Shown here: piece by piece, positions 16,862 through 56,500 of the stretch | Position numbering within the stretch: the first letter of the stretch is position 1 | How the letters are laid out: every line of letters starts with the position of its first letter | Sequence record: OR770614.1 | Reading direction: 5' to 3' (one strand) | DNA length: 64,000 nucleotides | DNA from: Staphylococcus phage vB_StaM_PB50 | Position numbers and translations under genes: made by a program | Notes under the pieces: generated by a model | Told to the model about the DNA's origin: nothing | The model's input: the letters and a program-made list of their open reading frames with translations, nothing else | The model's database searches: none

Positions 16862-18337
16862 TTGGCTGAAGAAAAAGATAAAAAAGAGTCTAAAGAACAA
16901 GAACCTTTAAAAGTTGCTGACAATGATATGGCTTTAATACCTCAAGCTGATGAGAAAAAAGGTGATTATGACTATCATGAATATGATCCTACTCAAAAAG
17001 ATACTGGTGCTTTTATGGATGCTTTAGGTAATCAAAGACAAGCAACTGAATATTTAACAGATAAAAATGCTAAAGATAAAAAACAATTAAGAAATGTTAA
17101 AGGTGAACTAGATGTATTTGGAATGCCTATGTACTATTCTAGTTTAGATGATCCTAATAGAAGAATATATAAAAGAACATTTGAATTAGATTTACCTTTA
17201 GTATTTATAATGCCAGGTATGCCTAAATTAAATGGTAAATTATTTGGTAAACCAGGAGAAGGTAAATTATGGAGTTTTGGTGAAGGAATGGATAGATTAG
17301 TAAACTCTGGTTTATCTTTAGTTGGTATCGGTAATACTAAAGATGGTCGTATGATAAGCTTTGAACCTAAAATGGCCGAATATTATAAATATGTACAGAC
17401 TATGGCTTCTCAAGTTCATGCATCAATGGGATTAAAAGGGTCATTTGATCTAGGTGGATCTTTACAAGATGATAAAAACTATGGACTAGCTTACTATGCA
17501 GATAAATCAACTAGTATATCAGAATCTGCAATGCATGAATATAATCAATCTGATATTGCTTCTCAAGTTAATAATAAAAACCAAGAAATACGAGAACAAA
17601 AAGAAATGGCTCGTATTGGAGGAGCTTCTATCTTAGGTAAAATTACTAGAACTATTAAAGATAGTATTAATGATATGGTAGCAAATATGCCAGTTATTGG
17701 TGGTATTGTAGGTAACTTTATGGAACATCTAGATGGTGCATCAATGTATTATCCCGATGTTTGGATGAACTCTACATTCGATAGAACTTATAATTTAGAA
17801 TTTAAATTCTATAGTGCTTATGGAGATCCACAATCTATATTTGACAATGTATATTTACCATTTCTTTCATTATTAGTATTAGCTTTACCTTTACAAGATT
17901 CAATATTCTCTTATAAGCAACCGTTTATTATCAGAGCTAATTGTCCTGGTAGATTTGAATGTAATACAGGTATAATAACTTCAATGAATATAGTTCGTGG
18001 AGAAGAGGGTACATGGACTGCAGATGGTTTCCCAAGAGAAATTACTGTATCTATTAATATTAGAGATATGTATCCAAACTTAATGGCTTCTAAATCATTC
18101 CAAAGAATGAAATTTAATACAGGATTATTATCTTATATTGATTGCTTAGCCGGAATTAGAAGGGATCAACTATCTATTATTGATAAAGCTCAAATTAATA
18201 TGAAAACTCAATACTCTAGAAGTATGCAAGTGATTAAAGGAAGAGTATTTCAACAACAAATTGATGATGCAATCTATGGATATAAATCCCAATATAATCC
18301 TCATCCAGGTAATCCGGGATTGAATATGTTTACTTAA
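16862..18337 (+). CDS. hypothetical virion structural protein (position consistent with a distal tail or baseplate component)
   Basis: 491-aa ORF with TTG start after 'aaaggaag'. Lies directly downstream of the tape-measure-like genes. No diagnostic motif. Confidence 0.45.
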   Translation: MAEEKDKKESKEQEPLKVADNDMALIPQADEKKGDYDYHEYDPTQKDTGAFMDALGNQRQATEYLTDKNAKDKKQLRNVKGELDVFGMPMYYSSLDDPNRRIYKRTFELDLPLVFIMPGMPKLNGKLFGKPGEGKLWSFGEGMDRLVNSGLSLVGIGNTKDGRMISFEPKMAEYYKYVQTMASQVHASMGLKGSFDLGGSLQDDKNYGLAYYADKSTSISESAMHEYNQSDIASQVNNKNQEIREQKEMARIGGASILGKITRTIKDSINDMVANMPVIGGIVGNFMEHLDGASMYYPDVWMNSTFDRTYNLEFKFYSAYGDPQSIFDNVYLPFLSLLVLALPLQDSIFSYKQPFIIRANCPGRFECNTGIITSMNIVRGEEGTWTADGFPREITVSINIRDMYPNLMASKSFQRMKFNTGLLSYIDCLAGIRRDQLSIIDKAQINMKTQYSRSMQVIKGRVFQQQIDDAIYGYKSQYNPHPGNPGLNMFT

Positions 18338-28732: not shown

Positions 28733-29446
28733 CATTTATGTTAACTGTATTAATGTAATACAGATCAGACTATGTCTTATTATTCTTCTCTAATTCATAA
28801 TGGCATTTTTTACAAACTGTAATAACATTTTCATCATAATGTGCTTCATTAGGATCATTAAATTTTATTATAGGTATAATATGATGTATTTCTAAGTTTT
28901 CTTTAGAATTACAGTTAGTACACATATAATTATCTCTTTTCATGATCTCTTTTCTACGTCTTCTATAAGTTCCACCGTATCTTGTTGGATTTTCTTTAGA
29001 ATAAGTATAATTGGCACATCTATCAGAACAAAAGTATCTCTCTTTATTATTAGCAAAAGTTAAAGAAGGTCTAGAGAATGTTTTATTACAAGTAAAACAT
29101 TTTTCTTTTCTTAATTTTCTTTTAGCTATAACAGAAGCACATTTTTTTGAACAACTGTCAGATTCTTTATGAGATGTTCTAAATTCATTATTACAAATAG
29201 TACAAATTTTTAAATAACGTCTATTTTTACAATTTTGAGAACAATATACTTTAGATTTATATTTTGTTTCAAAATTCTTACTACAAACAGGACATTTTTT
29301 ATTTTCCATTATTATCACCTCAAATCATTATTTGAGAAGAATAATTAATATATTTAGTCGTTGAACAACTTTTTTAAGTTGATGCTAATTGGTTTAATAG
29401 AAACGTCTTAGCAATTAATATTATTTTTATTGAGCCATTAAAATTA
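28733..29446 (-). mobile_element. group I intron in nrdE carrying an HNH homing endonuclease ORF
   Basis: On the minus strand: P 'aattgctaagacg', Q 'aattagcatc', R 'gttcaacgactaaa' (~29352-29366), S 'aagacatagtctgatc' (~28771-28790). Exon 1 ends with U ('...caattgggt|taattttaatggctc'). The intron ends with G immediately before 'cagagaaatgg'. ORF sits between R and S (P8). Confidence 0.75.
28770..29318 (-). CDS. intron-encoded HNH homing endonuclease with multiple CxxC zinc-finger motifs
   Basis: C-terminal HNH motif 'ENLEIHHIIPIIKFNDPNEAHYDENVITVCKKCHYELE'. N-terminal repeated 'CPVCSK', 'CSQNCKNRR', 'CTICNNEF', 'CFTCNKTF' motifs. Confidence 0.8.
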   Translation of the reverse strand: MIIMENKKCPVCSKNFETKYKSKVYCSQNCKNRRYLKICTICNNEFRTSHKESDSCSKKCASVIAKRKLRKEKCFTCNKTFSRPSLTFANNKERYFCSDRCANYTYSKENPTRYGGTYRRRRKEIMKRDNYMCTNCNSKENLEIHHIIPIIKFNDPNEAHYDENVITVCKKCHYELEKNNKT

Positions 29447-34269: not shown

Positions 34270-34443
34270 CATTTATGTTAGCTGCATGGATTATCATGCA
34301 GATCAGACTATATCATAATCTTTTTAAGATTTAATAAATTTAGTCGTTGAACATTATTTAATGATGCTGATTGGTTTTTAAACTTTTCAGCAGTTAATAT
34401 TATTCATCATCTATATTTCTATAAAGATGGAGCCTTTTTACTC
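34270..34443 (-). mobile_element. mini group I intron (ORF-less, ~174 nt) in terminase gene
   Basis: Minus-strand P 'aactgctgaaaag', Q 'aatcagcatc', R 'gttcaacgactaaa', P8 'aatctt aaaa agatt', S 'atgatatagtctgatc', P9 hairpin 'tgcatgataatccatgca', then 'gctaacataaatg|'. The 5' exon ends in U ('gaagcaat|gagtaaaaagg'). Confidence 0.7.
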
Positions 34444-34506: not shown

Positions 34507-35724
34507 CATTTACGTTAAACTGCATGGATTATCATGCAGATCAGACTATATCATAATTTTAATAATTTTTTCATAGGGATAATTAATTCTTCATTTATTC
34601 TATTCTGATAAGGGAGACGTATCATATTTATTCCTTTACTTCTTATAAATTTATCTTTTTCATTATCTAATTTTTTTATATCTTCAAGAGTTCTTGTGCG
34701 TTTATTTCTTTTATCATTAATAAAAGTTCCATAACCTTTTATATGTCCTTTTCCATCTACTTCAACTACAGTATTTATTTTTTTAAAATAAAAATCAAAT
34801 CTAAAACTAGATCCTTCAAAAGTAACTTCATTCTCATATTCTATATTATTCTCTTGAAGAAATTCAATAATGGCAATTTCTCCTATACTTTTAGAGCATA
34901 CACTACATCTTTTTCTTTTAAGTATATCATCTGGTCTTGTTTTAAATTTGTGTCCACAATCATTACTCTTCAAATAGATATAATCTTTGCTTCTAGTATA
35001 TTCAGTTAACACATTAAATTTATTATATCCAAATATCATATCTAATTCACCTTGAAACTCTTCTGTTGTCTTTTTAGATAATTCTTGACTATCTAATATG
35101 ATATAATTTTCATCATTTATACATCTATTACAGTTTACTGAATTATACTTCTTTCTTTTATCCATTAGAGTAGAAGGCTTTGCAAAATATCTTATATTTC
35201 CACATTTTCCACAACGGAATCTACACTTTTTATTCATTCCATTGAATCCTTCAATATAAGTATAATTAAATCCGAACTTATCTTTTAATTCTATTAAAAA
35301 AGTTTCTTTACCTTTAGAATTCTTGGGTTTTTCTGAATATCTACAATCTTTTCTATTACAGAATTTTCTCTTTAATCTTAATTTTTCAGTAGGTAAGAAA
35401 AAATCTCTATCACATATATTACAATGACATTTAATTGGTTCTTTAGAATTTTTATACTCTCCCAGTATTTCAAATTTATCTCCATTAATATCTTTTATTT
35501 CTTTAAAAGTTTTATTTCTCTGTTCTATGAATTTTTCTTTACTTTTAACACCTTTAGGCATTTTATCCCTCCGTTATCGTACTGATAAAAGAATGTTAAC
35601 AGTAAAAATTATTAAAATTGATTTTATTTAGTCGTTGAACACTAATTAAAGTGATGCTGATTAACTTCATTATTAGTCTTCCAGCAATTAAAAATCTTTA
35701 TGCACTGCATCTACATACGGTGCT
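34507..35724 (-). mobile_element. group I intron carrying a Zn-finger/PD-(D/E)XK endonuclease ORF in terminase gene
   Basis: Minus-strand P 'aattgctgg', Q 'aatcagcatc', R 'gttcaacgactaaa' (~35625-35640), S 'tgatatagtctgatc' (~34535-34550), P9 'tgcatgataatccatgca', end '...gtttaacgtaaatg|'. ORF 34551-35561 lies between R and S. Confidence 0.7.
34551..35561 (-). CDS. intron-encoded putative homing endonuclease: N-terminal CxxC zinc fingers plus C-terminal PD-(D/E)XK (DUF559/Vsr-like) nuclease
   Basis: 'VVEVDGKGHIKGYG...DKRNKRTRTLEDIKKLDNEKDKFIRSKGINMIRLPY' fits the DUF559 pattern (xEVDGxxH ... R..D..K...L...G..vlR). Several 'CHCNIC', 'CNRKDC', 'CRFRCGKCG', 'CNRC' motifs. Confidence 0.55.
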   Translation of the reverse strand: MPKGVKSKEKFIEQRNKTFKEIKDINGDKFEILGEYKNSKEPIKCHCNICDRDFFLPTEKLRLKRKFCNRKDCRYSEKPKNSKGKETFLIELKDKFGFNYTYIEGFNGMNKKCRFRCGKCGNIRYFAKPSTLMDKRKKYNSVNCNRCINDENYIILDSQELSKKTTEEFQGELDMIFGYNKFNVLTEYTRSKDYIYLKSNDCGHKFKTRPDDILKRKRCSVCSKSIGEIAIIEFLQENNIEYENEVTFEGSSFRFDFYFKKINTVVEVDGKGHIKGYGTFINDKRNKRTRTLEDIKKLDNEKDKFIRSKGINMIRLPYQNRINEELIIPMKKLLKL

Positions 35725-35744
35725 ACCTCTTCCTGCTTTGTTTG
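35725..35744 (-). CDS. terminase large subunit, exon 2 (micro-exon ~20 nt)
   Basis: Sequence between the 3' end of intron 1 ('...atacaatgtattacgg|') and the 5' end of intron 2 ('gaggt|agcaccg'). A 20-nt length keeps exon 1 (phase 0) and exon 3 in frame. Encodes ~'QTKQEEV' (or 'ANKAGRG' if shifted by 1 nt), filling the 7-residue gap seen in the T4 gp17 alignment. Confidence 0.45.
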
Positions 35745-35904
35745 CCGTAATACATTGTATGATATTCATACACACTAGACTATATCTTATAATATTAATT
35801 ATCTCTATATTTAGTCGTTGAACAATCAATTTGATTGATGCTGATTGGTTTAGTATCTTTTTCAGCAGTTAATAGAGTTTAATGAGAGCACGTATTTTAC
35901 TCTC
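35745..35904 (-). mobile_element. mini group I intron (ORF-less, ~160 nt) in terminase gene
   Basis: Minus-strand 5' end '|gagagtaaaatacgtgctc', P 'aactgctgaaaaag', Q 'aatcagcatc', R 'gttcaacgactaaa', S 'aagatatagtctag', P9 'tgtatgaatatcataca'. The 5' exon ends in U ('acaaatgct|'). Confidence 0.65.
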
Positions 35905-36545: not shown

Positions 36546-37715
36546 CTATCTTGTCTTAGTATTAAGCCTATTAGAATATTTTATTATTCTTTGAATTTCA
36601 TCTAATTGTTTCTTGAGTTCTTTTTTAACTTCATTAGAATTATTATTGTTACTAATTTCAAATTTTAATGTCTTAATAACTGCATCAATTGAATCTGTTG
36701 GATAATCTTTATAACTTTTAATAAAACCACTCATAGGATATAAAAGTCCTCTCATAGCTTTAGCTATTAAGTTATTAGGTCTTTTTTCAGATTTCATTCT
36801 AAATGCTTTATACACTAAATCATAAAATTTAACCATTTCTACAGAATATCCATAAAGAGCAGGTAATTGGTTGGCAGATCTTTCTGAAAGATTATAATCC
36901 ATAGTAGTTTTTCTATTGAAACTTGCACTTGTTAGTAACATTCCTGTTCCCATAAATGAACCCATTGATATGCTAGCACCTATAAATACAGCAGTTAAAC
37001 ACATTACTAATGTTGACATTGCAAGAATCATAGGAGCCGCTAATACTCTATTTCTTCTAGTGTCAGCTTCTATTTCTTTAGTGTACTTAAACTGTACTGG
37101 TTTATTATCTTTATATTTGAGTTCGAATGTAGGAGTTTTACCACCAGAGAGTACATTAATTTCTACAGGGAAAAATAAATTATGACCTATTTCATGTAAT
37201 AATAAAAAAGTATACATTCTACCATTAAGAGTAGTAAATTCTTTTTGACCTGATTCTTTCTTTTCTATAAAATATCTCAATGAAGATAATTCAATATTCA
37301 CTTCAATTTCTCTAGGTTTAGAATAGTAAATACCATTCTTTTCTTCAATAACAATTTTAGTGATTCCATCTGTAATATTTCTAATTTCTTCAGGTTTAAT
37401 TAATGTGTGTGCTACTGAACCTACCCTAAATTTATCTCTTCCACGCTTATCCGCTTCAATAAATTTTAATTTCATATTAGTGTTAAATAATTTCTTAGCA
37501 ATATCTGATATTCTTTTTGCAATATCATTGTATTCATTCTTATTAATTACATCAAAATCAGATTTTTCAAAATTATACTTACTAATTAATGAATCAAATT
37601 CATCATCTATCTCTCTTAGTAATGAAGTATTTTTACCAAAGTTAAATGCATCTTCATTGATGTTCATTATTTTATTTATTTTATTTAATTGTATTTCTTC
37701 TTTTAAAGATACCAT
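36546..37715 (-). CDS. putative membrane-anchored zinc metallopeptidase (HExxH), paralogue 1
   Basis: 389 aa. 'FLLLHEIGHNLFFP' HExxH motif, followed by hydrophobic helices 'VLAAPMILAMSTLVMCLTAVFIGASISMGSFMGTGMLL'. Clear paralogue of the adjacent gene. Confidence 0.5.
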   Translation of the reverse strand: MVSLKEEIQLNKINKIMNINEDAFNFGKNTSLLREIDDEFDSLISKYNFEKSDFDVINKNEYNDIAKRISDIAKKLFNTNMKLKFIEADKRGRDKFRVGSVAHTLIKPEEIRNITDGITKIVIEEKNGIYYSKPREIEVNIELSSLRYFIEKKESGQKEFTTLNGRMYTFLLLHEIGHNLFFPVEINVLSGGKTPTFELKYKDNKPVQFKYTKEIEADTRRNRVLAAPMILAMSTLVMCLTAVFIGASISMGSFMGTGMLLTSASFNRKTTMDYNLSERSANQLPALYGYSVEMVKFYDLVYKAFRMKSEKRPNNLIAKAMRGLLYPMSGFIKSYKDYPTDSIDAVIKTLKFEISNNNNSNEVKKELKKQLDEIQRIIKYSNRLNTKTR

Positions 37716-37730
37716 ATAATTTTCCTTTCT

Positions 37731-38846
37731 TTATATATCAGGATTGAAATTATCGGACAATTTCACTAATAATTTTATGTCATTTATAGTTTTTTTAATT
37801 TCTTTTTTGGTTTCGTTATCATTATTGTTATTACTTAATTCTTTTTCTAATATTCTTATATCACTTTCAACTATATCAGTTTCCCAATCTTTATAATCTC
37901 TTATAAAAAGCTTAATAGGATATAATATTTTATTTTTAATAGCATTAAACTTATTGTTCTTATAAGTAGGAGGTTTAAAACCATGAATTTTATCTATTTC
38001 TCTTACAATTATGGTTGTTTTAACTAATTCTCTAGAATATCCATAGAGTGTAGGTAAATAATCTGCAGTTCTCTCAACTAAATTATAATCTTTCTTGTCT
38101 TTATTATTTTTTACACTTCTATTTAAAAAGACAGAAGAAACTAATCCGGTTCCAATACCTATTGGAGCATTTACAATACTTAAAGATAAAAAGAAAATTG
38201 TCATCGCAGATACCATAGGAATTGCATACTTTTTATTTCTTCTTTCATCATCCTCAATATCTTTAGAATAAGAAAATATTTGAGGTGGGTTATTTTTATA
38301 TTTTAATTCAAATTTAGGAGTTTCTCCTTTATTTAATACATTCAATTCTAAAGGTAAGATTAAATTATGACCTATTTCATGTAATAAGACAGATGTTAAT
38401 AAACTACCATCAAATAAATTTTCAATTTTATTATTACTTTTTCTCAATAAAATACAGTATCTTATAAAATTCAATTCCATTTCAACTTTTATTTCAGTAG
38501 GTTTAGCATAATATATTCCATTTTTTTCTTCTGAAACTATTTTCAATAGACCTAAAGCTATATCTTTAGCTTGCTTTTCATTCCATTTAGTTTGTCCTAT
38601 AAAATTAGATGAATAAAACATTACATCATCTAAATCTAAGAAACTAAATTTTAATTTAGTGTTAAATAACTTATTACATAAATTCTCAATTTCTTTTTCT
38701 TTTTTGGTAAAATTAAAATTGACAAATTCTTCTTTATCTAAATCATATGAATCTATTAATTCATTAAATATTTTGTCAACATCTTTTAATGTATTTTTGT
38801 TTCTGCTATTTATAAACATGTCTTCTTTTAATAATATTTTAGTCAC
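37731..38846 (-). CDS. putative membrane-anchored zinc metallopeptidase (HExxH), paralogue 2
   Basis: 371 aa. 'SVLLHEIGHNLILP', then 'YAIPMVSAMTIFFLSLSIVNAPIGIGTGLV'. Shares 'NGIYY(A/S)KP.EI.V..EL' and 'KGETPKFELKYK' blocks with paralogue 1. Confidence 0.5.
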   Translation of the reverse strand: MTKILLKEDMFINSRNKNTLKDVDKIFNELIDSYDLDKEEFVNFNFTKKEKEIENLCNKLFNTKLKFSFLDLDDVMFYSSNFIGQTKWNEKQAKDIALGLLKIVSEEKNGIYYAKPTEIKVEMELNFIRYCILLRKSNNKIENLFDGSLLTSVLLHEIGHNLILPLELNVLNKGETPKFELKYKNNPPQIFSYSKDIEDDERRNKKYAIPMVSAMTIFFLSLSIVNAPIGIGTGLVSSVFLNRSVKNNKDKKDYNLVERTADYLPTLYGYSRELVKTTIIVREIDKIHGFKPPTYKNNKFNAIKNKILYPIKLFIRDYKDWETDIVESDIRILEKELSNNNNDNETKKEIKKTINDIKLLVKLSDNFNPDI

Positions 38847-42486: not shown

Positions 42487-42712
42487 ATGTCTAAAGATAT
42501 TAAAGCTTACATTATTAATGAATCTAATACAACTTCTCAACCAGAAGTAGTTCAAGATAATAACAAATCAGTTAGATTCATTGCTGAATTACAAGAAGCT
42601 GATAGACAAAACCGTAATGGTCGTGTTTATCGTAAAGATGTTATACAAAGTGGATTAGATAGTCCAGTAGTACAAGAAAAATTAGCAAGAAGAACTTTTT
42701 ATGGTGAGTTTT
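42487..42712 (+). CDS. putative prohead protease (T4 gp21-like), exon 1
   Basis: '...NRNGRVYRKDVIQSGLDSPVVQEKLARRTFYGEF' then the ORF stops. Exon ends in U before the intron start 'aggttaaaatggctcacg'. The family assignment is tentative. Confidence 0.5.
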
Positions 42713-42873
42713 AGGTTAAAATGGCTCACGTTAAATTATATTAATTGCTGAAATCTTATTTAAAGTAATCAGCATCAACTTAATACAAGTTGTTCAACGA
42801 CTAAATATATAACTTAATTTAATTAAGAAGATATAGTCTAATCTATATAAAATATAAATATAGATAATATAAG
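42713..42873 (+). mobile_element. mini group I intron (ORF-less, ~161 nt)
   Basis: Plus-strand P 'aattgctgaaatc' (42742-42755), Q 'aatcagcatc' (42767-42776), R 'gttcaacgactaaa' (42792-42805), S 'agatatagtctaatc', P9 'ctatataaaatataaatatag', end 'ataatataag|'. Confidence 0.7.
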
Positions 42874-43139
42874 CAGGTCATCCTTTAAGTGATGAACCTA
42901 AACGTCAAATGTATATTGATCAACGTAATATTTCTCATATTATCACTAGAACTTGGTGGAATGGTAATAAATTAATGGGAGAAGTAGAAACAGCTCAAAC
43001 AGCAGCTGGTAAAGATATGAAAGGTTTAATTGGACAAAAGTCTGATGTATCCTTCTCAATGCGTGGTTTTAGTAAAATAGAAAGAAAACCTAATGGTGAA
43101 GTAGAAGTTACTAAACCTTTAAGATTAATCTGTTACGAT
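42874..43139 (+). CDS. putative prohead protease, exon 2
   Basis: Reads 'S|GHPLSDEPKRQMYIDQRNISHIITRTWWNGNKLMGEVETAQTAAGKDMKGLIGQKSDVSFSMRGFSKIERKPNGEVEVTKPLRLICYD'. An in-frame stop 3 nt upstream of 'AGHP' requires splicing. Confidence 0.5.
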
Positions 43140-43319
43140 AAATAACTCTGTCGCTTCTTAAAGCAATTTAAGTCGAATAATATTATTAATTGCTGAAAAG
43201 AATTCATTAAATTAATCAGCATCCTCAAAAAGAGGTTCAACGACTAAATATAATATACTTAATTTATTAAGTAATGATATAGTCTAGTCTATATGAAATT
43301 CATATAGTTAATATAAACG
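43140..43319 (+). mobile_element. mini group I intron (ORF-less, ~180 nt)
   Basis: P 'attaattgctgaaaag' (43185-43200), Q 'aatcagcatc' (43214-43223), R 'gttcaacgactaaa' (43236-43249), S 'gatatagtctag' (43276-43287), P9 'ctatatgaaattcatatag', end 'ttaatataaacg|tggg'. Confidence 0.7.
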
Positions 43320-43673
43320 TGGGTAGTAATTCCATCACATCAAGATTCTTATATCCAAAATATAATTTCAGAGAATCATAATAATTACAATACTAGTGAT
43401 TTACAAATGGTTAATGAATCAATTGATATGTTTTCTAACGGTAAAGTTACAGAATTTTCTCCTAGAGAAGTTTTAACTTATATTAAAGAAAATTCAGACA
43501 ATATCAAATATATCGCTGAAGATATGGGATTTGATAAAGCTGATGAATCTAATATCATTTACGATAAAGGATCTCAATTAGCTTCAATTAAAGAAAGTAA
43601 TAAAACTATTAAAGTTTTCTTAGAAGAATCTGTTCTTAATGGACTTGATGATTTCTATAGAAACTTTAAATAA
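43320..43673 (+). CDS. putative prohead protease, exon 3
   Basis: In-frame extension upstream of the listed Met ('WVVIPSHQDSYIQNIISENHNNYNTSDLQ|MVNESIDMF...'). A stop codon sits at 43314-43316 inside the intron. Confidence 0.5.
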   Translation, partial: WVVIPSHQDSYIQNIISENHNNYNTSDLQMVNESIDMFSNGKVTEFSPREVLTYIKENSDNIKYIAEDMGFDKADESNIIYDKGSQLASIKESNKTIKVFLEESVLNGLDDFYRNFK

Positions 43674-51665: not shown

Positions 51666-52928
51666 CTAAAAAATATCCATTTTGTGAATATCTTTTTTTC
51701 TTCCTTGATTAATTAATTCGTTAATCATATTAATCTTTCTCATATCTGCATATAATACAAGTGTATGAACTACATTAGACTGTGGTTCTTTAACAATCAA
51801 TTCGAAATTATCATAGTCAATATAAAATTCACTTTTATCCATAGGTTTATTATTTCTGAATAATTTGAATTCAATAATTTTTTCTATATTTCCACCAATT
51901 TTATTAATTTCTTTAATAGATTTTATTATGTCTTTATCCATTATAGACTCTATTGGAGTACTATCAAATTTAACATTCATTTCAGTATTGAAATTTCTTT
52001 CAAGTAATAATTTCATTCCTCTATCATTTTCTTTAGGAATCATATCTTGTAAAATAGCAATATCAAATTGTAATATATCTTCACCAGGATTTTCTATCTC
52101 TCTTTGAATATTAAAGTCTTCTTCAATTTCTAATATATAACTACCAGGTACCCATAATTCAGCAGATATTGCATATTTAACTGCACTCTGTTTATTTATT
52201 AAGTTACTTATTTCATTTTCATAATTAACTAAATCTGGATAATTTAAAAGTATATTAGTTGTAAAATCGTAAGTATATTTCTCTTTACCATTGGCTAAAT
52301 TTTTTTTGTTAGTTATTGGACCTAATCCATTAGACATCATATAATCATTTAACTTAAGTCTATCTTCATTGTTATTAATATCTAAATTTAATTTCTTACA
52401 TATATTTACAATAAATATTTCTGGTAATTGTGTTGGTATTCTTATTTCATTTGCAAAATTATATCCACCAGATTCAAAAGTTTGATTAATATGATTAAGA
52501 GTATTCCAAGCACCCATTTGTGTTTGCAATAATATACCATAATTAAATACTATTTTATATCTTTGAGGTACCATGAATATTCTTATACCTCTTGTATCAT
52601 CTTCAAATATCATTCTATAATTTCTTTTTAAATTCTTCATTACAAATCTATCTGTTTTATGCCACATCGGTAAACTAGACATAAAACCATCGCCTAATTC
52701 AAATTGTGTAGTCATAGCTAAATGAGGATATCCCTTTTTTAAATTCTTCATATCTTTTAAAGAATTTGAATTCAAAGCTGTACTTACATAAGTTGAAGCA
52801 AAAAAATTGCTAGGGAACATTGATTTAAAATAATTCCACATAAATGACTGTACACCACTTATGACACTTGATAATGAAGGCGATGCAGTACACATTGAAT
52901 AATTACTATTTTCTCCTAATTGAGGCAT
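51666..52928 (-). CDS. hypothetical protein (420 aa)
   Basis: Long ORF convergent with the upstream plus-strand genes. No motif. Confidence 0.5.
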   Translation of the reverse strand: MPQLGENSNYSMCTASPSLSSVISGVQSFMWNYFKSMFPSNFFASTYVSTALNSNSLKDMKNLKKGYPHLAMTTQFELGDGFMSSLPMWHKTDRFVMKNLKRNYRMIFEDDTRGIRIFMVPQRYKIVFNYGILLQTQMGAWNTLNHINQTFESGGYNFANEIRIPTQLPEIFIVNICKKLNLDINNNEDRLKLNDYMMSNGLGPITNKKNLANGKEKYTYDFTTNILLNYPDLVNYENEISNLINKQSAVKYAISAELWVPGSYILEIEEDFNIQREIENPGEDILQFDIAILQDMIPKENDRGMKLLLERNFNTEMNVKFDSTPIESIMDKDIIKSIKEINKIGGNIEKIIEFKLFRNNKPMDKSEFYIDYDNFELIVKEPQSNVVHTLVLYADMRKINMINELINQGRKKDIHKMDIF

Positions 52929-53503: not shown

Positions 53504-56500
53504 TTGATTAGTATTCTAGATAAAGAACGTAAAAGAATTGAAGGTAAATTAGTTGCAGAAACTTTTGAAAATGTAATCTCTAGTGAGAAATTAGTATATG
53601 ATTTTAGTAAGAAAACTGAAATTATTGATATTGAATTCAAAAGTAAAAACTACATTTCAGAAAATACACATATAATTATTAAAGATGAAAGTAAGAATGA
53701 TTCTGAATTTGTTTGTATCGAAGAAAATGGTTTAAAATCTTCGTTAATTCCTGCTTATGTAAAAGATTTAAATAATGTCTTTATGAATTCTAATGAAGAA
53801 TTAAATGGACAATTAAAATCAGTATTAAGCACTTTATTATTGAATACAGGATATAATATTGAGTATAATGATTTAGTCGTTGATGAAGAAATTACTTTAT
53901 CTAAAAATAATAAATCTGTATTTGAAAAATTATTGGATATTGTATTTGAAAAAGATCTGTCTATTAGACATAAGTATGATATTAATACAAATGAAAGAAC
54001 TTTAATAATTAATAAAGGTAAAGATTTAAGAAAATCTAATCCTAAAGAAGTTTCTGGTAGAATTCCTGGTTTTGAATTTAATGTAGATAAATCAAATATT
54101 AAAACTGGTTTAATCATGTATAATGATAATAATGAATCTATTACTGTTAAAGACTCATTAAACCAAGCTAGATTTATTAAAGATGAAAATTATATATTTG
54201 ACACTATGGAAGTTAAAGGGAAAACTAGAGATGAAATGGAAGAGATTGCTTCTAAATACCTTAATGACAGTTCTTTGAATGCTATAGATTTAAAAATGAC
54301 TGGTTTAGTATTAAGAAATTGGACTAACTGTCATTATAATAAATTTATATCAAGTCAAATATTCATCAATTATAAAAATATAAAACCTGAGCTAACAGCA
54401 GGTTTCCAAATATATAAATTAGAGAGAAGTTTATTCGATTATAATATAGAGAAATTTAACTTCTTTGCTAAGCATAAAGATTCTAATGAAGTTTATAAAC
54501 CTGAAATGTTAGAGAATTATACTAAATACGCTAATGATAACATCTTTATTAAAGACAATACATCTTCTAAAAGTAATGATGTTAAATTAGTTGAATCTTT
54601 AGTTAATAAACAATTAGAGTCATTTAAAAATTATATTAATGATATTAGCAATAATAAAAATAGTGGTACAGATGGATCAAGTGTATTACAATCAAATAAA
54701 GAACTTAACTTTGATGCTATTATTTCTGATTTTAATTTAATTAAATCTCAAAAAGATCAAGTTGTTAACCAATTAAAATCTATATTTGATTCAGCTTATC
54801 TTAAAGAAGATGCAATTAAAATTCAGGTTAGAGATAAAATTAAAGAAATTAATAATGACTTTGATAAAATAAAATCTGAAGTCAATAAACTTAATAGAGC
54901 TGATCAGAATGAATCATTAATGAAAGATATTAATAAATCATTTGTAGGATTTTATTCTGTAGTTAATAGCACTAAAAGTATTATTGAATTATCTAATGAA
55001 GCTATTAACTTAGAAATGAATAAACTTCAAAATGAATATTCTCATGGTATTAAAGATACTGTATTTTCTGAAATTGGAAGAGTTTTAGGATTATCATATG
55101 ATAGTAAAACTCAAAAATTAACAGGAAATATCAATGTAACTGAGGATATCAATGAAGTAAAAACTTCTTTAGAATTAATGAGAGTAAAAGTTAATAGAAT
55201 TGAAAATGATCTTAATGACTCTGATAGAGGATTGAAAGAAAATTTAATTCGATTAACAGAAAATCTATCAAATGTACTAGGCTTACCTATTAACTCTGAA
55301 TCTGGTTTAATAGATGGAGCTATAGATAATCAAGATACGTTTGATCTTATCCAAAAACAGATTCAAAAAACTAAAGATGAAATTGCTGAATCTAAAGTTA
55401 ACTTAGAAAATACTAAAACAGAATTAGAAAAACAACAAGAAGAATTAGACCAAAAATCTAAAGATATAGATAAAGCTATGGCTGAAGCTAATAGGGTTAG
55501 AGAAGATTTAGGTCAAGAATTAGAAGTTTCTCAAAAAGAGTTTAATTACTATATGGATTCTCGTGGAGATAACTTAATTTTTAATGGTAATGCAGATCAA
55601 GGAGATGAATCAAATTTCCCTGGAATGTATTACGATAATTCAGATGCCTTTCAATCAGCAGCTTCATTTAGAATAGAAGGATTTAACTCTATTGTTTCTT
55701 CTGAAAGATTAATACCGATTAATCCAGAGAAGACATACAAACTTTCTATGTTTATGAAGAATAACAATTCTCTTCCTTCTTCTATAGGTCATTTAAGTTA
55801 TGATAAAGATGGACAATTAATAGAATCTCAACATGTAATGGGTAGTGAAAAACCTGTAATTGAATTAGCTCAAGAATTAAGACAAGGAGATAAAGTTATT
55901 TATTTCAATAGTCTTGATGGTCTTGATGATACTTATAGATTCCAGTCTGCTCCGTTAGATGAAGAAGATGACACTCCTGTTTATGATTATGATAGAGATG
56001 GATCAGTTGTATTACCTAGTGATGCAGATGATATTCTTTCTATAGATGATCCTAATGCCATTCCTGATGAAGAAGAAGACACTATAATATATGCAGAGGA
56101 CACGCCTGAAGAAGATAAAACTACAGAACCTGATGTTCCTATGCCTGATTCTGATGAGCCGGTTGAAACTAATTCAACTCCAGTAGATGAAGAAGAAGCT
56201 ATTAAGAATATGACTAATAATTATAATGTGTCTAATGCTGGAATTGTTAATAGAAATATTAATCCTAATTTAACGGATTATAACGATAATCATTCATTAG
56301 TTATTTGGAATTTCAAGAGTAATGATGGATATAATTATGGTGAATCTACTTATTCTAGAAATGTATTCATGAATGGTTGGGATTATGGTGCTATTGATAG
56401 AGAAAATAATTGTATTTATCTTAATAGACCTTTTGATTTAATTAATTATGATTCTGAAGATGGAGGTTTCCCTGCTGGAACTAAAGTTTCAGGAACATTC

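Follow-up and report, generated by a model that had tools for sequence, protein, structure and literature searches.

Introduction

The prohead protease gene of Staphylococcus phage vB_StaM_PB50 lies at positions 42487-43673 (+) of the 64-kb stretch of DNA analysed here, which we call the window. In the window it is spread over three open reading frame (ORF) fragments, whereas its homologue in phage PALS_2 is uninterrupted (843 nt). What interrupts this gene, and how could a complete protease be made from it? A first-pass annotation of the window had read the two gaps as miniature group I introns, members of a family that also occupies terL and nrdE. Here, we assess that reading with intron-less alleles, covariance models and related phage genomes.

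The window is colinear, in reverse orientation, with the genome of Staphylococcus jumbo phage Machias (MW349128); over some 57 kb the two are 96.6-98.1% identical. Madawaska, MarsHill, AH12, LY01, PALS_2, S6, SA1 and DC4 are more distantly related. Korn et al. (2021) inferred intron-split genes in this clade from protein alignments only, without saying of what type, size, structure or family the introns were, and stated that TerL resisted reconstruction.

Two insertions in the prohead protease gene

A three-way DNA alignment including PALS_2 places two clean insertions, prot-1 and prot-2, in the window protease gene, and both are missing from the PALS_2 allele. The gene is laid out as follows.

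42487-42709 (+): prohead protease exon 1, 223 nt; last base U42709, paired with G in P1; placed by tblastn with the intron-less PALS_2 protein (residues 1-74) and by DNA alignment
42710-42873 (+): group I intron prot-1, 164 nt, without ORF and without P2; internal guide sequence (IGS) 42723-42729; P3 42736-42741/42807-42812; P4 42746-42750/42770-42774; P5 42755-42765; P6 42776-42792; R/P7 42792-42805; P8 42813-42827; S/P7' 42830-42838; P9 42843-42863; terminal G42873
42874-43139 (+): prohead protease exon 2, 266 nt; tblastn with PALS_2 residues 75-163
43140-43319 (+): group I intron prot-2, 180 nt, without ORF; P1 CGAU/GUCG with IGS 43150-43153; P2 43157-43172 with a GCAA cap; P3 43180-43186/43250-43256; P4 43191-43195/43217-43221; P5 43201-43213; P6 43223-43235; R 43235-43248; P8 43257-43272; S 43276-43284; P9 43289-43307; terminal G43319
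43320-43673 (+): prohead protease exon 3, 354 nt with stop; tblastn with PALS_2 residues 164-281

With exons ending at U42709 and U43139 and introns ending at G42873 and G43319, the PALS_2 frame is restored residue for residue (Y-G-E-S-G-H-P; C-Y-D-W-V-V). The spliced product, of 280 aa, matches Pfam Peptidase_S77 (PF03420, 36.1 bits) over residues 37-179, across both junctions. The spliced gene is 843 nt long, like the intron-less one of PALS_2. Both findings bear out the earlier description of a protease-like gene split into three exons by two introns. The boundaries originally given for the second intron, 43140-43319, are exact according to the intron-less allele. For the first intron, the 3' end at 42873 was right and the start, placed at 42713, has to be moved to 42710. 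The U.G pair of P1 sits at 42709-42710, not at 42712, and the intron-less allele likewise points to U42709 as the last exon base. An alternative junction, 42712/42874, is also in frame, but it inserts a residue that is missing from the intron-less allele. As had been noted, in-frame stops lie right after both intron starts (TAG 42712-42714; TAA 43143-43145); a stop is expected by chance about every 11 codons at the base composition of the window.

The window and Machias protease genes together hold three distinct intron sites within 11 nt, TGT/TAC GAT/TGG GT/A, with slashes marking the sites (window 43130-43330; Machias locus L002, about 2240-2640). Hence, the Machias gene has an 11-nt micro-exon (TATGACTGGGT) and four exons, where its annotation has three. 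We considered prot-2 as a recombinant of the two Machias introns at this locus and rejected the idea, as it has splice sites located between those of the Machias pair and an unrelated 5' part.

Introns in terL and nrdE

Intron boundaries in terL were set by the intron-less allele of SA1, and those in nrdE, as in the protease gene, by that of PALS_2. Aligned to SA1 TerL, the minus-strand gene runs through exon 1 (36531-35899), intron T1, a micro-exon, intron T2, exon 3 (34506-3444x), intron T3 and exon 4 (to 32958).

35746-35898 (-): group I intron T1 in terL, 153 nt, without ORF and without P2; P1 UGAGAGU/GCUCUCA
35717-35745 (-): terL micro-exon, 29 nt, A N K A G R G S T V; from alignment to SA1 terL
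34507-35716 (-): group I intron T2 in terL, 1210 nt; ORF of 336 aa (34551-35561) in the loop of a 16-bp P8
34270-34439 (-): group I intron T3 in terL, about 170 nt by the U(-1)/terminal-G rule; P2 with a GAAA cap
28733-29446 (-): group I intron in nrdE, 714 nt, after codon 249; HNH ORF (28770-29318) in the loop of a 10-bp P8

Four of the six introns are ORF-less, as originally described (153, 164, about 170 and 180 nt), T1 being the smallest in the window. In Pfam, the T2 ORF yields no more than a weak DUF4379 zinc-finger match; in Machias it is annotated as a 'homing endonuclease'. The nrdE ORF matches Pfam HNH (29.7 bits), and its stop codon overlaps the S element. Once spliced, nrdE measures 2202 nt, the length of the intron-less PALS_2 gene.

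Excision also restores the frame of terL relative to the intron-less SA1 allele, save for a one-base ambiguity at T3. At this intron, the cut expected from P1 falls behind U34440, and the conserved tail AACAUAAAUG would make G34270 the final base; excision between these points takes out 170 nt and puts the exons out of frame. Compared with intron-less alleles, terL has gained 171 nt here, and there is no canonical in-frame junction (34270-34441, minus strand). The in-frame alternatives are a G at -1, restoring an Arg conserved in five phages, or an A as the final intron base. The junction is identical in Machias (locus L005 4655-4835). With this one base set aside, the layout above gives this group of phages its first complete exon map of terL. 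No such reconstruction had been possible in the original genome paper.

In their 3' halves, which run from P7' over P9 into the tail, T2 and T3 are almost identical. The P9 hairpins of both have the same stem in the window and in Machias, but the loops are reverse complements of each other (ATAATC in the window, GATTAT in Machias), which looks like an inversion of the hairpin (positions 34285-34305 and 34525-34545 of the window, minus strand; Machias locus L005 4562-4582 and 4802-4822). In nrdE, the place of the window's 714-nt intron with its HNH ORF, after codon 249, is taken in Machias by an ORF-less intron of 162 nt (66684-66845). P1 and L1 (UAAUUUUAAUGGCUCA) are common to the two, and P3-P6 are different. 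We also considered a minus-strand ORF, 37731-38846, as an intron or transposon gene. This candidate was rejected, being a 40%-identical tandem paralogue of its neighbour, 36546-37715. Its 371-aa product carries a HEIGH motif, is missing from Machias and has no Pfam match.

Group I architecture and covariation

The R element GTTCAACGACTAAA is identical in the six introns, as first reported, with exact copies at 29353, 34339, 35627 and 35810 on the minus strand and at 42792 and 43235 on the plus strand. With up to two mismatches it is found 7 times in the 64-kb window, against 0.52 expected by chance. The additional site, at 53872 (2 mismatches), was rejected as a seventh intron after no family-model match was found there. 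This family covariance model, R1, was built from the six window cores and covers P3 through the terminal G. Run over the window with filters off, it returns the six introns in three genes that had been proposed (two in the protease gene, three in terL, one in nrdE) and no seventh.

The ORF-less introns score 112 (prot-1), 123.8 (prot-2), 112.6 (T1) and 136 bits (T3) with R1, and the two ORF-containing ones are matched in halves (78.6 and 53.7 bits for T2; 79.6 and 49.8 bits for nrdE). Local searches with Rfam RF00028 give end-to-end matches to five of the six at 21.8-37.3 bits (E 1e-7 to 8e-3), all below the gathering score of 50 bits: prot-2 at 37.3 bits (E 1.3e-7), T3 at 34.8 bits (E 1e-6), prot-1 at 30.9 bits (E 1.1e-5), T1 at 25.3 bits (E 7e-4) and the 5' half of T2 at 21.8 bits. 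The nrdE intron is matched by the family model only. Over the whole window, Rfam gives no match, either at the gathering score or by E-value, and the MarsHill copies reach 47.0 and 45.1 bits. In this sense, introns of this family are missed at the standard Rfam thresholds.

The elements have the parts of a group I intron. P1 places a U.G pair at the cleavage site (GGUGAGU/GGCUCAC in prot-1, UUGGGU/GCUCAA in nrdE, GCACCGU/GCAGUGC in T2) and is only 4 bp long in prot-2. The U at -1 is paired with G in five of the six introns, and T3 forms the pair too, but out of frame. All six have a G at the predicted 3' end, although in T3 this choice leaves the one-base frame problem. P4 is UGCUG/CAGCA, with a compensatory A-U in the nrdE copy. 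J3/4 (UAA), J4/5 (AAA), J6/7, J8/7 and the G-site of P7 are intact and conserved. Of the six, only prot-2 and T3 have a P2, with a GCAA and a GAAA loop, respectively; T1, prot-1, nrdE and T2 pass from P1 directly to P3. The helix maps bear out the first-pass description of P5, P6, P8 and P9 as short hairpins. All helices can be drawn by hand, including the P3/P7 pseudoknot, and minimum-free-energy folding recovers most of them; the nested-fold z-scores are modest (-2.75 and -2.41).

R1 finds 28 copies in the Machias genome (26 of them full-length, at a strict cut-off), nine in the terL loci of AH12, MarsHill and LY01, and one weak match only in PALS_2. We measured covariation in 39 full-length copies (4 from the window, 26 from Machias, 9 from the three sister-phage terL loci). 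Standard pairs fill 94.4% of pair cells, compared with 72.4% after shuffling. Cells with double changes number 272 against 80 in the shuffled set, and 26 of the 37 pairs show double changes. P3, P6, P8 and P9 covary, most of their positions showing at least four pair types; there is essentially no variation in P4 and P7, and P5 pairs poorly (70.8% in the family alignment). The covariation score is 0.513, and sliding the register by 1-3 columns brings it down to 0.094 or less. Having been fitted to R1, the alignment favours this model, but the slid registers keep the relatedness of the copies and the score nonetheless collapses, which argues that the architecture is well supported. The covariance-model check suggested with the original proposal thus came out in its favour, as a P1-P9 architecture with P-Q and R-S pairing is found in the six copies. 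Altogether, these data show the six elements to be group I introns, and make it very probable that they are excised from the protease, terL and nrdE mRNAs by guanosine-initiated splicing.

Size classes and extreme relatives

Copies from the window and Machias fall into two size classes, one of 142-164 nt without P2 and one of 170-183 nt with a GNRA-capped P2. Their G+C content is 18-30% across the family, and there is no P5abc, P7.1/7.2 or P9 extension. Automated calls of 5' splice sites from P1 pairing and an open frame proved too noisy in this AT-rich DNA, and mapping onto PALS_2 was used. With the PALS_2 genome as the intron-less reference, ten Machias copies measure 142, 150, 154, 162, 174, 174, 179, 180, 180 and 183 nt.

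Some relatives are further reduced. The first terL intron of MarsHill and LY01 is 127 nt long, has neither P2 nor P9 and scores 47 bits with RF00028; it is followed by a 14-nt micro-exon, CGTGGTTCTACTGT (MarsHill locus L127 1365-1491; LY01 locus L128). Three Machias copies lack P8 and have about 6-7 nt between P3' and J8/7 (51882-52035, 115342-115491 and locus L133 47465-47591). In the P8-less Machias copies the distance from R to S is 37-38 nt, against a minimum of 45 nt among the 127 R-sharing IMG/VR introns listed. In the copy at 115342-115491, the frame is restored only with a C at -1 opposite an A. Such an apparent C opposite A at the splice site suggests that non-canonical sites may be tolerated in the family.

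The window introns had been described as lying at or below the size of the smallest known group I introns. This holds against the Azoarcus pre-tRNA-Ile intron, reportedly 205 nt long, than which all the ORF-less copies are shorter. It is tempered by the jumbo-phage introns of about 206 nt that have since been published (PMC12880540). No statement of a record size for group I introns was found in the literature searched.

Proposed splicing mechanism and alternative readings

The mechanism that we propose is the standard two-step, guanosine-initiated transesterification, which would remove the introns from the protease, terL and nrdE mRNAs. P1, formed by the 5' exon and the internal guide sequence with a U.G pair at the cleavage point, would select the 5' splice site. 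P4-P6 and the P3-P7-P8 core would form the G-binding and catalytic site, and the terminal G would mark the 3' splice site. Exon ligation in the protease mRNA would then yield the 280-aa Peptidase_S77 protease. The introns form a single miniature family, AT-rich, restricted to Staphylococcus jumbo phages of the MarsHill/Machias clade and trimmed of peripheral extensions, with two window members (T2 and nrdE) carrying a putative homing-endonuclease ORF in L8. TerL and the prohead protease are presumably essential, as judged from T4-type phages. Since sister phages with the same or sister introns are plaque-forming isolates, we infer that splicing takes place in vivo.

It could be argued that the interrupted genes are simply split or decayed, and that the repeats are intergenic elements which are never spliced, in keeping with the in-frame stop found soon after each exon. 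This would leave internal exons that have no start codon or ribosome-binding site, one of them, in terL, only 29 nt long. It would also leave to coincidence that excision gives exactly the intron-less frames and a Pfam protease domain spanning both junctions. The sister phages that share these gene structures have, moreover, been isolated as viable phages. We consider this reading extremely improbable. A far more serious matter is whether the RNAs act unaided. The very low G+C content and the missing stabilising periphery (no P5abc, P7.1/7.2 or P9 extension) make autonomous self-splicing doubtful. The introns may instead be group I derivatives that no longer self-splice and depend on a maturase, a chaperone or other help in trans from phage or host. 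Such dependence would also suit the sister-phage members that lack P8 or P9 in presumably essential genes, and it has a parallel in Bastillevirinae phages, in which four of the eight genes with experimentally confirmed splicing were spliced only in infected bacteria. On the other hand, the catalytic junctions J3/4, J4/5, J6/7 and J8/7 and the P7 G-site are all intact, several members keep a GNRA-capped P2 and no candidate maturase was identified. GNRA-capped P2 hairpins typically make stabilising tertiary contacts. Weighing these points, we give protein dependence a substantial chance, somewhat short of even. More tentatively, and with the odds rather against it, the family may include the smallest self-splicing group I ribozymes in nature, the candidates measuring 153 nt in the window, 142-154 nt in Machias and 127 nt in MarsHill and LY01. 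Members that lack P2, P8 or P9, or that have C.A (possibly G-C) in place of U.G, would then be catalytically competent without protein. Were this true, the minimal group I core would have to be redefined. RNAs that splice unaided would be natural, compact starting points for defining the minimal catalytic core, for making small circular-RNA or trans-splicing tools and for work on AT-rich ribozyme folding.

A further question is whether the copies stem from a recent burst of duplication within this genome. The original proposal had relied on near-identical cores for this purpose, and the R element and the P4 strands are indeed identical in all six copies, as the 3' halves of T2 and T3 nearly are. 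However, the identical segments are conserved across the class. The R 14-mer itself is generic, occurring in at least 120 IMG/VR contigs. Elsewhere the cores are not near-identical; P9, which had been counted among the nearly identical segments, covaries. From P3 to the terminal G, identity among the four ORF-less window copies is only 59-68%, and the 28 Machias copies have a median identity of 62% over the same segment (range 46-87%), as opposed to 82-100% between window and Machias orthologues (T1 100%, T3 96%). With this level of identity between paralogues, and with compensatory changes in every variable helix, the family appears old enough that recent intragenomic spread does not follow, and the claim is not sustained. 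A recent burst is accordingly very improbable, and we favour an older family whose variable helices have been rewritten.

Turnover, insertion sites and IStron-like arrangements

An old family can nonetheless be mobile. Breaks in the colinearity of the window and Machias are almost all mobile elements: an intron-TnpB insertion, a fourth terL intron, different nrdE introns and a different protease intron. Because intron content differs between two sequences that are 96.6-98.1% identical, these elements turn over and their mobility appears to be current.

The same guide can follow the same exon bases in different genes. The GUCG guide of the P2-bearing subfamily follows CGAU in the window protease gene, and GUCG-guide introns are also found after CGAU in the Machias gyrB, virion RNA polymerase beta' and DNA polymerase genes. 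Likewise, T1 and one Machias polymerase intron share the exon bases GAGAGU with the guide GCUCUCA. This choice of sites fits guide-directed insertion by reverse splicing, and would fit equally well with selection for sites able to form P1; we regard it as a lead, not a demonstration. The ORF-less copies might move with the help of endonucleases supplied in trans, through recombination during mixed infection, or by reverse splicing into guide-matching sites.

IStrons combine a group I intron with an element of the IS605 family. A likeness to them exists in Machias only, where three family cores lie directly 5' of TnpB (OrfB_IS605) genes. One is a 1642-nt insertion in a virion-protein gene, consisting of a mini-family core followed by a TnpB gene (OrfB_IS605/Cas12f-like; Machias 77816-79457, L130 28816-30457). 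The two others are at locus L133, 9561-10987 and 31934-33355. The 64-kb window contains no TnpB and has an empty site at 17758/17759, and the fusion of a group I core to an IS200/IS605 gene that defines an IStron is found only in the three Machias copies.

PALS_2 lacks the mini family, yet according to its annotation tables gyrB, terL and the DNA polymerase gene seem to be split by insertions that contain ORFs (loci L135 34385-37933, L137 36742-40286 and L139 9359-12105). The DC4 genome is of a sister type to PALS_2, with its split-looking gyrB, terL and DNA polymerase genes. A blastn search found no copies of the family in DC4. We also asked whether thermolabile mini-ribozymes could be the cause of the absence of plaques of these phages at 37 C, and found no evidence to connect growth at low temperature with the mini-introns. 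According to its genome paper, which reports no Rfam introns, all phage work on DC4 was done at 30 C.

Comparison with known compact introns

The Machias elements are the same as those of the window, and the Machias record gives its protease and nrdE genes as joined CDS. The two phages differ in that the site-2 protease intron of Machias lies elsewhere, in its extra fourth terL intron and intron-TnpB element, and in their nrdE introns. The strict signature of the family was found in one IMG/VR contig and in five contigs of one metagenome, and in none of about 185,000 bacterial and archaeal genomes.

Among classical introns, that of Azoarcus has a similar minimal P1-P9 structure without large peripheral domains, and a GNRA-capped P2 as in prot-2 and T3. 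It is G+C-rich, thermostable and located in a tRNA anticodon loop, whereas the window introns have 18-30% G+C, are 25-50 nt shorter, interrupt protein-coding genes and mostly lack P2. Phage Twort reportedly has a three-intron gene, orf142, and nrdE introns, said to be of about 250 nt and of subgroup IA2, with P7.1/P7.2. The likeness lies in several small ORF-less introns in one structural gene of a Staphylococcus phage, together with an nrdE intron. In contrast to Twort, there is a single hairpin or none here between P3' and P7', and P7.1/P7.2, the mark of IA2, is absent: R-start to S-end is 46-50 nt in the ORF-less window copies, with room for one short hairpin.

In Bastillevirinae phages, the non-coding part of the introns measures 350 +/- 108 nt. 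A close published parallel comes from jumbo gut phages, called 'Jug' phages, in which 2513 group I introns have been reported (Sci Adv 2026; PMC12880540), with a mean size of about 206 nt, 18.5 introns per genome on average, many of them ORF-less, and metatranscriptome read support for splicing in 37 of the 76 tested. R1 also finds related compact AT-rich introns in 233-384 kb contigs from IMG/VR, several of them at a locus, with full-length matches of 40-79 bits. Dense arrays of compact AT-rich introns, with up to eight R1 matches in 12.6 kb, are seen in IMG/VR contigs L110, L051, L052, L018 and L062 (68-378 kb), which may be Jug-type phages of that study. The Jug introns resemble those of the window in being ORF-less and compact and in occupying terL, ribonucleotide reductase and polymerase genes. 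They differ in host and phage lineage, and the window members are shorter (153-180 nt, with sister extremes of 127-154 nt). Given that swarms of introns of about 200 nt in essential genes of jumbo phages are already published, the value of our findings is incremental. The window introns are a new, unusually short family within this recently recognised class, and not a new kind of element.
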